Notes: a model not told the origin generated them from the letters alone. A DNA stretch of 64,000 nucleotides from Candidatus Levyibacteriota bacterium (GCA_049519175.1 JBEKQZ010000001.1:224043-288042), one strand, 5' to 3'. Shown: positions 26,290 through 63,379, numbered from the stretch's first letter. Translations and numbers: made by a program.

Positions 26290-27248
26290 AAATTTTAGTG
26301 ACCGGTGGAGCAGGATATATCGGAAGCTTCATGGTAAAGCGCCTTGTTGAAGAAGGTCATGCCGTTACAGTTGCGGACAGCTTGGAAAGAGGACACAAAG
26401 AAGTTGTCGATCCAAAAGCCAAATTATTTCTCGGTAATCTTCTCAACAAAGCATTTGTAGAAGAATTATTCAAAGATAAATTTGATGCCGTTATTCACTT
26501 TGCCGGTTTTATTTCGATGGGTGAGTCGATGGAAAATCCTTATCTCTATTTTCAAAATAATGTTTTTACTTCGCTTAACCTCCTAGAGGAAATGGTCAAA
26601 ACAGGTAATAATAATTTTATCTTTTCATCCTCCGCCGGCGTTTATGGAAATCCGGAACAAGTTCCAATTCCGGAAACAAGCAAAACCTTGCCGACTAATC
26701 CATATGGCGAAAGCAAGTTAATGATAGAAAAAATTATGAGTTGGTATGGAAAAACCAAACAGATTTCAACCGTTGCTTTAAGGTATTTTAATGCGGCCGG
26801 TGCTTCCCTAAACGGCGCAATGGGAGAGAATCATACTCCCGAAAGTCACATTATCCCAAAAGTAATAAAAGCTTTAATGGAAAATAAAGAATTTAATCTT
26901 TTTGGCACAGATTATCAGACTAAAGACGGAACTTGCGTCAGAGATTATATCCATGTTCTGGATTTGATTGAAACGCATATCCTCGCCATCCAAAAATTAC
27001 AGACAAACCCCGGTAATTATATTTATAACGTCGGAACCGGGGTCGGATTTTCCAATCGGGAAATTATTAATATGGTAGAGAAAATTTCCAGTCAAAAAGT
27101 TAATGTTGTTAATTCTCCAAGACGACCTGGCGACGCGGATGAGCTAGTTGCTGATCCGACAAAAATAAAATCTGAATTAGGTTTTGCTCCAAAGTATTCC
27201 GACCTTGAGACAATTGTTAAAACTGCATGGCAATGGCACAACAAATGA
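26286..27248 (+). CDS. galE: UDP-glucose 4-epimerase
   Basis: MKILVTGGAGYIGSF (Rossmann motif). YGESK (catalytic YxxxK). DGTCVRDYIHVLDL. 320 aa. Typical GalE. Confidence 0.8.
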   Translation: MKILVTGGAGYIGSFMVKRLVEEGHAVTVADSLERGHKEVVDPKAKLFLGNLLNKAFVEELFKDKFDAVIHFAGFISMGESMENPYLYFQNNVFTSLNLLEEMVKTGNNNFIFSSSAGVYGNPEQVPIPETSKTLPTNPYGESKLMIEKIMSWYGKTKQISTVALRYFNAAGASLNGAMGENHTPESHIIPKVIKALMENKEFNLFGTDYQTKDGTCVRDYIHVLDLIETHILAIQKLQTNPGNYIYNVGTGVGFSNREIINMVEKISSQKVNVVNSPRRPGDADELVADPTKIKSELGFAPKYSDLETIVKTAWQWHNK

Positions 27249-59734: not shown

Positions 59735-60670
59735 ATGATTAGCGCAGTCGTCCCGGCATTCAATGAGGAAGAAAGCCTTAATGAGCTTTATAAGGTTTTG
59801 TCAGTAAATTTACTTAAGCTTGGTCAAGAATACGAAATAATTTTTGTTGATGACGGCTCAACCGACTCCACGCTTCAAATTCTGCAAAAATTAGCCTCAA
59901 AAGATAAAACCATCAGAATTTTCTCTTTTCGGAAAAACCGCGGTAAAGCAGAAGCGTTAACGGTTGGTTTTCAAATGGCAAAAGGGGATTATATTGTCAC
60001 TTTGGATGCGGATTTGCAGGATCGACCGGAAGAAATAAAAAAACTTTTAGATAAGGCAAAGGAAGGCTTTGATTTAGTTTCCGGTTGGAGAAAAGACAGA
60101 AAAGACGCGCTTAGAACCAGATTGTCTTCCCAGTTCTTTAATTTTATCATGAGTTCCTTTTGGGGAGTGCACTTGCACGACTATAATTGCGGATTAAAAC
60201 TTTATACTAAAGAAGCTGCCAGAAGCCTTAACTTATACGGAGGAATGTACCGGTTTATTCCTTTGCTGGTGGCGGAAAAAGGTTTTGAAGTTACAGAAAT
60301 TCCGGTTGTCCACGAAAAAAGAAAATTCGGAAAATCGAAATACGGATTTTCCAAAATCTTTCGGGATGTCCCCGATATGTTTACAATCCTTTTCCTCTCT
60401 AAATACGCCAAAAGACCCTTGCATTTCTTCGGCTTTGTGGGTGGAATAATTTCGGCCATTGGATTTTTTATAATGATATATCTTACAATTTTGCATTTTA
60501 TGGGACAGCGGATAGGAAATAGGCCCCTACTTACTTTCGGAATGCTCTTGATGCTGGCGGGATTACAACTTTTGTTTACCGGTCTTTTGGCCGACTTGAT
60601 TTTGCATATCTCCCAAAAAGATAGTCAGGGCATAAATCTTAACGAGGGTTTTAAATATAAGACCAAATGA
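59735..60670 (+). CDS. Polyprenol-phosphate glycosyltransferase (GtrB/ArnC/DPM1-like GT2 with C-terminal TM hairpins)
   Basis: ISAVVPAFNEEESL..IIFVDDGSTDST..TLDADLQD. The C-terminal membrane helices (FFGFVGGIISAIGFFIMIYL..LLFTGLLADLIL) are the hallmark of lipid-carrier sugar synthases feeding GT-C enzymes. Confidence 0.85.
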   Translation: MISAVVPAFNEEESLNELYKVLSVNLLKLGQEYEIIFVDDGSTDSTLQILQKLASKDKTIRIFSFRKNRGKAEALTVGFQMAKGDYIVTLDADLQDRPEEIKKLLDKAKEGFDLVSGWRKDRKDALRTRLSSQFFNFIMSSFWGVHLHDYNCGLKLYTKEAARSLNLYGGMYRFIPLLVAEKGFEVTEIPVVHEKRKFGKSKYGFSKIFRDVPDMFTILFLSKYAKRPLHFFGFVGGIISAIGFFIMIYLTILHFMGQRIGNRPLLTFGMLLMLAGLQLLFTGLLADLILHISQKDSQGINLNEGFKYKTK

Positions 60671-61239
60671 AGATAGGAATTGACATCTCACAGTTGGCGT
60701 ATCCCGAAACGGGAGTGGCAAACTATTTGCAAAATCTCGTTCAGAATTTAATCGAAATAGACAAAAAAAACGAATATATACTTTTTTTCTCTTCGTTAAG
60801 AGGAAAACTTAAAACTGAAAACTTAAAGCTAAAGAGTAGCCTAAATGTTCAAATAAAAACTTTTCGGATTCCGCCGACAATTCTGGATATTCTTTGGAAT
60901 AAGCTGCATATATTGCCGATAGAAAGCCTAATTGGCGATGTTGATATTTTTATTACCTCTGACTGGACAGAGCCGCCCGCCAAGAAGGCCAAAAAAGTGA
61001 CTATCCTCTATGATTTGATAGTCTATAAATATCCTGGGGAATCTCATCACCAAACTAGCTTTAATCCGCTCAAGTTAATTATTTCGCCCAATATTGTCGA
61101 TGTTCAAAAGCGGAAATTGAAGTGGGTTAAAAAAGAATCTCAAAGAATCTTTTGTATCTCAGAAGCGACCAAAAAAAATGCAGAGGAGATTTTAGGAATT
61201 CCCCAAAACAAGCTAGCGGTAATTTACCCGGGTTTCTAG
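60667..61239 (+). pseudogene. Truncated GT4 glycosyltransferase (N-terminal domain only; catalytic C-terminal half missing)
   Basis: 190 aa. MKIGIDISQLAYPETGVANYL.. aligns with the N-terminal domains of the full GT4s at 27245 and 62258. It stops at ..KLAVIYPGF, the position where the paralogs continue into the EX7E domain. Confidence 0.6.
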
Positions 61240-61240
61240 A

Positions 61241-61280
61241 CATATCTGGAAATATCTGGTAATATCTGGAAGTATATGGA
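61241..61280 (+). repeat. Four tandem copies of a 10-bp unit (cATATCTGGa / aATATCTGGt / aATATCTGGa / agTATATGGa) between the truncated GT4 and the Fic gene
   Basis: Directly visible. The Fic ATG (61276) lies within the fourth, degenerate copy. Confidence 0.7.
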
Positions 61281-62253
61281 AATTCCTCTAGAGTATGAAT
61301 TAACGAAGGTAATGGTCGATTTGATCTCCAAAATCGAAGCAAAAAAGGCAATTATTGAAACTACTCCGGTTTCGGAACGCTTAACAAAAACACTGCGAAG
61401 ACAGTCTCTCCTTAAAAGTTCTTTATTTTCCGCCAAAATTGAAGGCAATAAGCTTAATTTATCAGATTTGAAACGTCTAGATAAGTTTGACCCGGATTAC
61501 GAGCAAAGAATTGAAGTGGAAAATATTTTATCGGCATTATCTTTCGTAAACGGCGATCCGCATAGAAACATTAACCTTGATTATATCTTAAGTTTACACG
61601 CAATAGTCATGAAGCATTTGGGAAGCGATTTAGGAAGAATACGCAACGAACCGAGCGCAATATTTAACGAATCGGGCTTCCCTGTCTATATTCCGCCTCC
61701 GCCATCCGAGCTTGGGGGTTTGCTTGATAGGCTCGTTTCCTATATTGGTATTAAGACAAATGAAAATGTTTTGATCAAAGCTTCTCTTACGCATCTCTCT
61801 TTTGAGAAAATCCATCCTTTTATTGACGGCAACGGCAGAGTAGGAAGGCTTTTGTTCCACGCAGTCGCCATAAAAGAAGGCTACGATTTTAAAGGACTAC
61901 TCTCCATAGAAGAATTATTGAATGAAAGAAAAGCCGAATATTATGAATATTTGGATAGAAGCGATGCGACTTCATTTATAGAATTCATGCTGGAAATCAT
62001 CAATGGACAGCTTCAGAAGGTGCTTGATGAGATTAATAATAAGCAAGAAACCTCGGAAGATTTGCTTTTGCCCCGCAGAAAAGAGATATTAGATGTAATA
62101 AGGGATCATGGGGTGATGTCCTTAGATTCCATACGAAGACGTTTTCTTAAGGTATCTTCCAGGATGATTAGATATGATTTAAAGAAACTGGAAGAACAAG
62201 GATTTATAATTAAACTTGGAACTACCAGGGGAGCAATGTATAAGCTAAAATAA
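61276..62253 (+). CDS. Fic-domain protein (AMPylase-type, class II inhibitory motif) with C-terminal winged-helix DNA-binding domain
   Basis: Canonical Fic motif HPFIDGNGRVGRLL. Upstream inhibitory-helix motif SAKIEGN ([S/T]xxxE[G/N]). C-terminal wHTH-like segment DVIRDHGVMSLDSIRRRFLKVSSRMIRYDLKKLEEQGFI. Confidence 0.85.
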   Translation: MEIPLEYELTKVMVDLISKIEAKKAIIETTPVSERLTKTLRRQSLLKSSLFSAKIEGNKLNLSDLKRLDKFDPDYEQRIEVENILSALSFVNGDPHRNINLDYILSLHAIVMKHLGSDLGRIRNEPSAIFNESGFPVYIPPPPSELGGLLDRLVSYIGIKTNENVLIKASLTHLSFEKIHPFIDGNGRVGRLLFHAVAIKEGYDFKGLLSIEELLNERKAEYYEYLDRSDATSFIEFMLEIINGQLQKVLDEINNKQETSEDLLLPRRKEILDVIRDHGVMSLDSIRRRFLKVSSRMIRYDLKKLEEQGFIIKLGTTRGAMYKLK

Positions 62254-62257
62254 GAAT

Positions 62258-63379
62258 ATGATAATCGGAATTGACGGAAACGAGGCAAACATTGAAGCTA
62301 AAGTCGGCATCAGCGAATATGCCTATGAGTTGCTTTGCCAATTTTCTAAAATTGCATCTTCTAGAAAAGACCTAAAGTTCAAAATTTATTTAAAAAGTAA
62401 TCCGAGAGTGGAAATGCCGGTACCAACCGAAAACTGGCAGTACCAAATAGTTCATCCGAAGAAATTTTGGACGCAAATTGGTTTACCGTTAAAACTTTTT
62501 ATGGAAACAAAAAAACCAGATGTGTTTTTTAGTCCTTCACACTACGCCCCAAGATTCTCGCCTGTTCCAACCGCAATTTCGATTATGGATTTGTCCTACA
62601 TTCATTTTCCCGAGCTTTTTACCAAGCACGATTTGTATCAATTAGTGAATTGGACTAAATATTCCGCCAAAAACGCCAAAAAAATATTCACAATTAGTAA
62701 TTTCAGTAGAGATGATATAATCAAAACATATAAGAAAAAACTGGCAGACGTAGTCACGACTTATTTAGGAATAAAAGAAATATTAAGTAACAAGTATCAA
62801 GTATTAAGTATGGACGATTTAAATAAAAAGTTTGGAATTGAAAAACCCTACATTTTGTTTGTCGGAACGCTCCAGCCTCGAAAAAACATTGTTAAGTTAA
62901 TTGAAGCTTTTTCACTACTCAAAAATAAAGATGTTGAGTTAGTCATTGTGGGTAAAAAAGGTTGGTTGTGGGAAGATATTTTCGCCGCGCCGGAAAAATT
63001 CAAAGTCGCAGAAAAAGTTAAATTTTTAGATTTTGTGGGGAACGAAGACTTACCCAGTTTTTACAAAAACGCACTTTGTTTTGTGTTGCCAAGTTTGTAT
63101 GAAGGTTTTGGGTTGCCGGTTTTGGAAGCGATGAAATTTGGTTGCCCAACGGTAATTAGTGATGTTTCCAGTTTGCCCGAAGTCGGAGGAGATGCTTGCC
63201 TCTATGTTGACCCGCAAAGCGTTGACGATATTGCCCAAAAGCTCAATACGGTAATTTCGGATGAAAAATTACGAGCCGAAATGGTTAAAAAAGGTTATAA
63301 TCAAGTCAAGAAGTTTTCTTGGGAAAAGACAGCCAAGGAAACCTTAAAAGCGCTGGAGGAACTGGGAAAACAAAAATGA
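62258..63379 (+). CDS. GT4 family glycosyltransferase
   Basis: EGFGLPVLEAMKFGCPTVISDVSSLPEVGGD. Full length at 373 aa. Confidence 0.85.
   Translation: MIIGIDGNEANIEAKVGISEYAYELLCQFSKIASSRKDLKFKIYLKSNPRVEMPVPTENWQYQIVHPKKFWTQIGLPLKLFMETKKPDVFFSPSHYAPRFSPVPTAISIMDLSYIHFPELFTKHDLYQLVNWTKYSAKNAKKIFTISNFSRDDIIKTYKKKLADVVTTYLGIKEILSNKYQVLSMDDLNKKFGIEKPYILFVGTLQPRKNIVKLIEAFSLLKNKDVELVIVGKKGWLWEDIFAAPEKFKVAEKVKFLDFVGNEDLPSFYKNALCFVLPSLYEGFGLPVLEAMKFGCPTVISDVSSLPEVGGDACLYVDPQSVDDIAQKLNTVISDEKLRAEMVKKGYNQVKKFSWEKTAKETLKALEELGKQK

Follow-up and report, generated by a model that had tools for sequence, protein, structure and literature searches.

We analysed a 64-kb stretch of DNA (the window; unless a locus is named, coordinates are those of its full length, and all window features described lie on the plus strand) from a 580-kb contig of a metagenome-assembled genome (MAG) of Candidatus Levyibacteriota, a member of the Candidate Phyla Radiation (CPR). 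Our subject is a gene for a Fic-family protein that stands in a glycan operon between a half-size glycosyltransferase gene, GT4N, and a full-length GT4 gene, and that starts directly after an array of 10-bp direct repeats. The best explanation of the whole arrangement, which we regard as probable, is that GT4N is an ancient gene in its own right, that the array and the Fic gene form an accessory cassette in a hotspot at the GT4N|GT4 junction, and that the class II Fic protein regulates itself. This corrects a tempting misreading, made in an earlier note on this DNA, according to which Fic had displaced half of a GT4 gene: the "truncated" GT4 is a widespread, selected half-size gene and not insertion debris. 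The GT4N/Fic junction was the same in four independent assemblies (ENA ERZ27250144, Logan SRR7028199, JGI 3300009760 and ENA ERZ27250043); therefore, the junction and the repeat array are genuine and not an assembly artefact, a concern that the note itself had raised.

The Fic gene (61276-62253) encodes a 325-aa class II, SoFic-type protein whose C-terminal domain is a winged helix-turn-helix (wHTH), where the class assignment follows the classification of Engel et al. 2012. In Pfam, the open reading frame (ORF) matched PF02661 (E 8.4e-20) and HTH_DeoR (E 5e-7), and the AlphaFold2 (AF2) model of the protein had a pLDDT of 90.4. The catalytic motif HxFx(D/E)GNGRxxR is satisfied by HPFIDGNGRVGR at residues 180-191 (61813-61848; H180-PFIDGNGRVG-R191), in which H180, P181, D184, G185, N186, G187, R188, G190 and R191 were invariant in an alignment of 44 homologs that we used for all residue comparisons. 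The auto-inhibitory motif of the type (S/T)xxxE(G/N) reads S52-A-K-I-E56-G-N58 (SAKIEGN, 61429-61449); S52, A53, I55, E56, G57 and N58 were invariant, and the AF2 model places the motif in helix 34-55, N-terminal to the Fic core. The wHTH (62041-62250) was recognized by HTH_DeoR, HTH_12 and HTH_20 matches at residues 267-316 and by its fold, since the AF2 order of elements at residues 266-324, helix-strand-helix-helix-strand-strand (helices 266-278, 283-289 and 295-307; strands 280-282, 311-314 and 321-324), is that of a wHTH; here, R289, F290, R296, R299, D301, K313, G315, T317, G319 and Y322 were invariant.

Foldseek aligned about 340 columns of the model to 4rgl, 7cb8, CccR (7xux; the 7XUX entry was confirmed as CccR), SoFic (3zec/3eqx) and CbFic2 (8cil), and the PADLOC SoFic model PDLC03963 matched residues 19-322 with its profile positions 29-349 of 361 (E 6.5e-51). 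The catalytic motif, the class II inhibitory motif and the C-terminal wHTH, which the earlier note had read from the sequence, are thus all confirmed. We conclude that the protein is a distant family member of the SoFic/CccR/CbFic2 group and not a SoFic equivalog. Judged by its motifs, it is most likely an AMP-transferase, and it is most likely held off by its own N-terminal SxxxEGN helix. Its dN/dS ratio (nonsynonymous to synonymous substitution rates) was 0.12-0.15. The small antitoxin-like ORF that the note had suggested looking for is absent here, the ORFs overlapping the Fic gene being antisense and without support; there is no room for an antitoxin gene, because only 36 nt lie upstream and 4 nt downstream of the Fic gene, and such a gene would be superfluous, as the protein has its inhibitory helix in cis.

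GT4N and Fic share a reading frame, with a TAG as the sole stop in the 36-nt spacer (window 61237-61278; the same in locus L016, not in L012). We considered and rejected a fusion of the two proteins by read-through of this stop codon, as L012 has further in-frame stops and the start of Fic is conserved; the shared frame is most likely coincidental. In another locus (L099:4962-5001), the called start of the Fic homolog is probably 39 nt too far downstream, and an in-frame ATG directly after the array there gives MVIPPSYTLTPA..., which matches the conserved N-terminus.

GT4N (60667-61239, 190 aa) forms the left boundary of the Fic cassette and is not part of it. That it corresponds to the N-terminal domain of a GT4 enzyme alone, as the earlier note had claimed, is borne out by its only Pfam match, PF13439 (E 5.4e-8, profile positions 3-165 of 170), and by 47% identity over all 190 residues to residues 1-188 of a full-length 384-aa GT4, which runs on into a normal EX7E C-domain. 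Thus, GT4N, whose last residues are ...VIYPGF, breaks off between the two GT4 domains and lacks the C-terminal nucleotide-sugar-binding domain with its EX7E motif. The similarity to the two intact GT4s of the window, at 27245 and 62258, with which the note had aligned it, exists, but is weak and local. The best 120 homologs of GT4N were all 176-197 aa long, all lacked the C-domain and shared the end ...YPG(F/I/L)-stop, with a mean column identity of 73%, and relatives are encoded in 455 species-representative genomes of GTDB. In a 50% clustering, the two best clusters were ~190-aa forms, and the next matches (E about 1e-55) were full-length GT4s of 360-386 aa that aligned over their first ~180 residues.

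The dN/dS of GT4N against its relatives was 0.08-0.09, with saturated synonymous sites (dS), and because this is strong purifying selection, the gene must be regarded as selected. We conclude that GT4N descends from a full-length GT4, that its truncation is ancient, fixed and selected, and that it is a functional stand-alone gene. A GT4N profile search of PDB sequences gave no match, and the window contains no separate C-domain-only partner gene, C-domain matches being found only inside the two full-length GT4s. Hundreds of Levybacteria genomes have kept an N-domain-only protein of this kind (174-202 aa; loci L016-L095), and its gene is usually translationally coupled to a full-length GT4 gene (ATGA overlap or a gap of 1-4 nt). 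This coupling suggests that GT4N and the full-length GT4 form a heteromeric enzyme, or that GT4N is a non-catalytic accessory subunit.

The full-length GT4 gene (62258-63379, 373 aa) has its ATG 4 nt past the Fic stop codon and forms the right boundary of the cassette. Pfam matches and synteny in 80 species loci carrying GT4N identify it as the ancestral direct downstream partner of GT4N. In these loci, for which we compared the gene order and the gap between GT4N and GT4, the common order was GT2, GT4N, full-length GT4 and hexapeptide transferase. GT4N stood upstream of a full-length GT4 with no Fic gene in between in 73 of the 80: the two genes overlapped (ATGA type) or were at most 9 nt apart in 38 loci, were separated by a spacer of 15-104 nt in 20 and by a larger insert of 145-3415 nt in 15. 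Fic occupied the junction in four loci, and no GT4 followed GT4N in three. This comparison, which the earlier note had proposed as a check, shows GT4N without Fic and ending at the same residues in 76/80 loci, and the tight coupling of the 38 loci was scattered over the whole tree of flanking proteins. The conserved stand-alone N-domain protein of ~190 aa that the note had said would speak against a displaced half-gene is therefore what the related genomes contain.

In other lineages, the same junction hosts PF05635 intervening-sequence (IVS) proteins, a YafQ/RelE-type toxin with a partner ORF, a Bro-N protein and large membrane proteins, and this variety of accessory and selfish genes marks it as a hotspot of accessory cargo. 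Fic, toxin-antitoxin, Bro-N and IVS-protein elements have landed here repeatedly, which makes the junction useful when CPR genomes, in which classical defence islands are missing, are mined for defence or selfish cargo.

Some of these inserts have features of their own. The PF05635 ORFs, annotated as "23S rRNA intervening-sequence protein" (~125 aa, E 1e-35; L044:4712-5155, L057:2370-2875, L069:6567-7016, L082:6540-7005 and L095:6531-6962), lie between inverted repeats of 14-36 nt that consist of short tandem units and whose complementarity reaches 92% over 36 nt. They look like IVS-type elements that have been placed in an mRNA operon rather than in 23S rRNA, and the junctions of L017 and L029 hold empty palindromic spacers of the same style. 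The YafQ/RelE-type toxin gene (L090:1630-2361) has an upstream 101-aa partner on the opposite strand, and the Bro-N domain protein (275 aa, L032:6531-7407) is encoded in or near the junction. An AbiEii toxin gene with an 87-aa partner (L096:7718-8588) was found between the hexapeptide transferase gene and the next GT2 gene.

The Fic cassette, ~1.02 kb of repeat array and Fic ORF between GT4N and the full-length GT4, is patchily distributed. A Fic gene was present in the junction of the window and of L016 (89% identity), L012 (74%), L033 (69%), L022 (65%), L018 (62%) and L096 (60%), and in a tree of three flanking proteins, the Fic-bearing loci fell in at least four separate places among Fic-less genomes. 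Homologs with 50-60% identity occurred elsewhere, namely between a GT4 and a flippase gene, after SecDF and near GroEL, and relatives with 27-30% identity were found on 700 plasmids. Between the window and L016, dS was 0.39 for Fic and 1.7 for GT4N. Over 2.7 kb starting at about 61220, a co-occurring strain (L003) matched the window with 100% identity, but upstream the identity was only 65-75%, and this sharp jump reveals a recombination breakpoint at the 3' end of GT4N. From the distribution, we conclude that the Fic cassette is accessory and has been repeatedly exchanged or lost; its transfer would have proceeded by homologous recombination through the conserved flanking genes. The earlier note's view of Fic as defence- or toxin-type accessory cargo is upheld by the PADLOC match to SoFic, the patchy distribution and the plasmid-borne relatives.

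The history of the cassette could also be told differently, and we consider it unlikely, though by no means negligible, that a junction Fic was ancestral to a Levybacteria subclade and was lost many times, being perhaps a regulator tied to the downstream glycosyltransferases and not mobile cargo. Every junction copy is co-oriented with the operon, the Fic genes of the window, L016, L012 and L022 abut the GT4 start to within a few nucleotides, and a related Fic copy follows a GT4 in another glycan locus too. Fic identity also runs roughly parallel to flanking-gene identity, so that some of the patchiness could be due to vertical inheritance combined with several losses, which counts against repeated exchange. 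However, tight GT4N-GT4 coupling recurs across the whole tree in 38 of the 80 loci, the dS of Fic is four-fold below that of the flanking gene in the comparison with L016, Fic homologs with the same array stand in non-glycan contexts, and unrelated selfish genes occupy the same junction.

Several individual loci are of interest for the cassette. The breakpoint maps to about 61180-61220 of the window in comparison with L003:1-3180 and L006, which derive from co-occurring strains of sample ERZ27250043; one of the alleles has a 13-codon deletion in GT4N, and a second contig of this sample stops inside the array, as expected for an assembly-graph fork. In a different glycan locus (L097:4931-6010), a cassette of array and Fic ORF (60% identity) lies between the arms, 1026 nt apart, of a 27-nt inverted repeat that is 85% complementary and resembles the palindromic spacer of L017. 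Such a repeat may serve to carry inserted genes or to mark them for processing; it is absent from the window copy, and we found no transposon or insertion signature at the window cassette, neither an inverted partner nor a repeat at its 3' end. On an Azotobacter plasmid (L227, NZ_CP045301.1 18025-19002), a 27%-identical Fic-wHTH relative lies between hsdS and hsdR in a type I restriction-modification operon, a location that fits a role of the wider family in defence. A phage origin of the Fic gene was rejected, as no relative was found among IMG/VR viral contigs; this result is silent on defence.

The array in front of the Fic gene (61236-61275) consists of four in-register 10-bp units, CTAGACATAT / CTGGAAATAT / CTGGTAATAT / CTGGAAGTAT, followed by ATGGAA, the first two Fic codons; this register is the one common to its relatives. 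The stop codon of GT4N overlaps unit 1, which is degenerate, and the Fic ATG at 61276 comes directly after the fourth unit. Tandem Repeats Finder reported a period of 10 with 4.2 copies at 61242-61283, the last of which takes in the Fic ATG, and its score of 63 was the second-highest in the window, so that the 10-bp x4 tandem repeat described in the earlier note is confirmed. A position weight matrix from 137 units of 32 loci gave the consensus YTGGHAATAT, with G3, G4, A6, A7, T8, A9 and T10 each conserved to at least 85%. The arrays have 2-6 units (mode 4) in strict 10-bp register, with 3-6 units in 30/32, and end 0-25 nt before the start codon.

The array is tightly linked to the gene. It was present upstream of every Fic homolog of the clade examined (24-100% identity), in several contexts, and was nearly unchanged between the window and L012, the neighbouring coding DNA of which is about 75% identical. 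With up to three mismatches allowed, the two-unit pattern matched this site alone in the 64 kb (0.01 expected), and in 1.11 Mb of related loci it occurred only upstream of Fic and on the Fic strand. The search for further copies that the note had proposed thus found none, and second arrays, which would be a sign of a regulon, are absent from the window and the 1.11 Mb. The array was also missing from Fic-less junctions of the 80 species loci. Four plasmid-borne Fic-wHTH relatives (from Bacteroidota, Enterobacter, Bacillus and Azotobacter) have no array upstream, showing that it is clade-specific and not a general feature of SoFic proteins.

We also scanned JGI metagenomes blindly with the pattern GGHAATATNNGGHAATATNNGGHA. 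Among the matches listed, 80 loci comprised 22 with a Fic/wHTH ORF (24-68% identity) directly downstream, 4 contig ends, 29 perfect microsatellites and 25 other sequences. Two of the hits were complete genes for a wHTH alone, of 66 and 68 aa (E 1e-25 and 1e-22 to the Fic C-terminus), which means that the DNA-binding domain keeps the array even where the Fic core is absent. These genes (L166:382-588, 68 aa; L179:270-470, 66 aa) lie behind 5-6 array units in two genomes, in the same context, convergent with a ychF-like GTPase gene, and a 204-aa internal-deletion derivative of Fic stands behind the same array in L151.

Several features connect the array with transcription. A promoter-like site, which is no more than a pattern match in a consensus scan, spans 61237-61265, with a -35-like TAGACA at 61237-61242, a 17-nt spacer, TG at 61257-61258 and a -10 element TAATAT at 61260-61265; the predicted transcription start at about 61272 would leave a leader of 3-5 nt. 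Array units with T at position 5 have the form of an extended -10 element (TG-n-TAATAT), the last TGGTAATAT-type one being found 6-10 nt ahead of the ATG in many relatives. In L101, the gene upstream is divergent, and the promoter must therefore lie in the 123-bp spacer that bears the array. At the same time, the 3-6 phased units, the conserved G4 and the non-consensus ATA core point to a sequence-specific binding protein, for which the wHTH of the Fic protein itself, as far as can be judged from sequence, would be the parsimonious candidate.

From this comparative evidence and by analogy with CccR and SoFic, we consider it rather likely that the array is a combined promoter and operator through which the Fic wHTH represses its own gene. 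The array would double as the Fic promoter with a TG-extended -10 element and give a near-leaderless mRNA. As operator, it would be bound head-to-tail by the C-terminal wHTH, the direct repeats at 10-bp phase presenting one face of the helix, and Fic transcription would be repressed by its own product. Such autorepression could hold down the amount of a potentially toxic or defensive enzyme whose gene lies within a constitutively transcribed glycan operon. By analogy, the trigger could be phage infection or a stress that releases the inhibitory glutamate, and the target of AMPylation could be an essential protein, e.g., EF-Tu, FtsZ or topoisomerase. Of the two functions that the earlier note had offered for the repeat, the operator is a good candidate on comparative evidence, and the iteron is rejected: gene calling gave no Rep-like gene in the 10 kb to either side, the array lies in a chromosomal glycan operon, and its units are 10 bp instead of about 20 bp.

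Besides the parallel between Fic and flanking-gene identity, several points weigh against our interpretation. The evidence for an operator is comparative throughout, and the NCBIfam SoFic equivalog model NF046030 gave 51.4 bits with a cut-off of 550. CccR binds inverted 10-bp repeats as a symmetric dimer, so that the direct repeats described here need another binding geometry. The promoter match is 9/12, and such matches were no commoner than in shuffled sequence (12 observed vs 10.3 expected). Finally, a promoter co-inherited with the gene could alone explain the array at the wHTH-only deletion derivatives.

We give a minor but real chance to another possibility, namely that the array is a promoter or DNA-architecture element only, which RNA polymerase or a non-Fic host factor would read as a stack of TG-extended -10 elements or as phased, bendable DNA. 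The T5 units and the position of the last of them, the promoter-like match in the window and the need of L101 for a promoter of its own in the spacer all agree with it. A promoter, however, needs one unit, yet 30 of the 32 arrays keep 3-6 in register; G4 falls on the free "n" position of an extended -10 element, yet it is 98% conserved; A7-T8-A9 is consistently off the TATAAT consensus; and the pattern precedes no other gene in the 1.11 Mb, where a general type of promoter would recur.

A more far-reaching version of the operator idea is speculative and in our opinion very unlikely. Here, the array would be a platform for head-to-tail polymerization of the Fic wHTH, which would store inactive DNA-bound enzyme and, as a roadblock, tune the downstream glycosyltransferases; release, e.g., upon phage attack, would activate AMPylation and alter the surface glycan. 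If true, a defence toxin would be coupled to receptor remodelling in a CPR bacterium.

It is also very unlikely that the array acts in RNA, as a 5' leader whose repeated GGA/GGU motifs recruit ribosomes or a CsrA-type regulator. The array abuts or overlaps the start codon, read-through transcripts would contain it, since Fic is co-oriented with a long operon, and Shine-Dalgarno motifs are few in this genome (such a motif precedes only 7/40 start codons of the window genes). On the other hand, the array RNA has no structure beyond that of shuffled controls (z -0.38) and no Rfam match, and the base after GG varies freely (A, T, C) while AATAT is conserved, unlike what selection by a GGA-binding protein or by anti-Shine-Dalgarno pairing would produce.

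The reading that a Fic insertion recently destroyed the C-terminal half of a GT4 gene, with the repeat as its scar or by-product, is refuted: although GT4N descends from full-length GT4s, stops exactly at the domain boundary and has Fic directly 3' of it, the same truncated gene ends at the same residues without Fic in 76/80 species loci, is at most 9 nt away from the next GT4 gene, or overlaps with it, in 38 of the Fic-less ones and is under strong purifying selection, and the array is missing from Fic-less junctions and accompanies Fic homologs into unrelated loci. No inverted partner of the array was found within 60600-62400.

Two observations concern the wider sequence context. Nearly all long ORFs of the window (1-64000) are on the plus strand, and it is rich in glycosyltransferases, PMT-like and other large membrane proteins. 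Levybacteria-type loci were also found on many contigs titled "uncultured Gammaproteobacteria bacterium" (L018, L020, L026, L038 and others) and on single contigs titled Deltaproteobacteria, Pacearchaeota, Eisenbacteria or Sulfotelmatobacter, which points to mislabelled or contaminated MAG bins.

Among known systems, the Fic protein can best be compared with SoFic of Shewanella oneidensis (SO_4266), a stand-alone, single-gene anti-phage defence system (Millman et al. 2022, bioRxiv 10.1101/2022.05.11.491447) that binds to the 100-bp stretch preceding its own start codon (bioRxiv 10.64898/2026.07.09.737422) and for which autorepression has been suggested. Both are class II proteins with an N-terminal inhibitory helix and a C-terminal wHTH, encoded by a stand-alone gene, and Foldseek aligned them over ~340 columns (E about 1e-11). 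They differ in sequence (about 20% identity) and length (325 aa here, 372 aa in SoFic), and the present gene belongs to a CPR host and a glycan operon rather than a defence island. It also lacks the downstream AS1-like small ORF (AS1: PMC12249575), for which the 4 nt to the next gene leave no space, and has a direct-repeat array as candidate operator, which has not been described for SoFic.

CccR of Yersinia pseudotuberculosis (PDB 7XUX), another Fic protein with a wHTH, represses its own promoter through 10-bp sites (PMC9755527) and matched our model over 348 columns (E 1.3e-12). The core of its half-site, AGATAATCAT, resembles the GGTAAT of the array, which we regard as a lead only. In contrast to the 2-6 direct repeats described here, which keep a 10-bp phase and abut the start codon, CccR binds as a back-to-back dimer to two inverted repeats 26 bp apart; moreover, it is an effector secreted by the type VI secretion system that AMPylates FtsZ, whereas nothing suggests secretion of the Fic protein studied here. 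CbFic2 of Coxiella burnetii (PDB 8CIL) is likewise a class II Fic protein with a DeoR-type wHTH and a structural match, and DNA binding controls its dimerization and (de)AMPylation (PMC10628234). However, the DNA binding of CbFic2 is largely non-specific and its target is host histone H3, whereas the present gene is linked to a cis-array that is specific and conserved.

With the class I FicT/FicA systems, the present one shares a potentially growth-arresting AMP-transferase inhibited by a glutamate-bearing helix, and an accessory, patchy occurrence; unlike in these systems, the inhibitory helix is part of the same polypeptide and there is no antitoxin gene. The wHTHs of the OmpR/PhoB type, bound head-to-tail to promoter-overlapping direct repeats whose period is about 10-11 bp, provide a precedent, by analogy only, for the recognition of direct repeats by a wHTH. 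What is new is thus a distant member of the SoFic/CccR class with a distinctive clade-specific direct-repeat cis-element. The SoFic-type clade to which it belongs is widespread in Patescibacteria and has a sharply defined candidate operator (YTGGHAATAT, 2-6 units), and this array could give the first sequence-level handle on how a Fic wHTH recognizes direct rather than inverted repeats.

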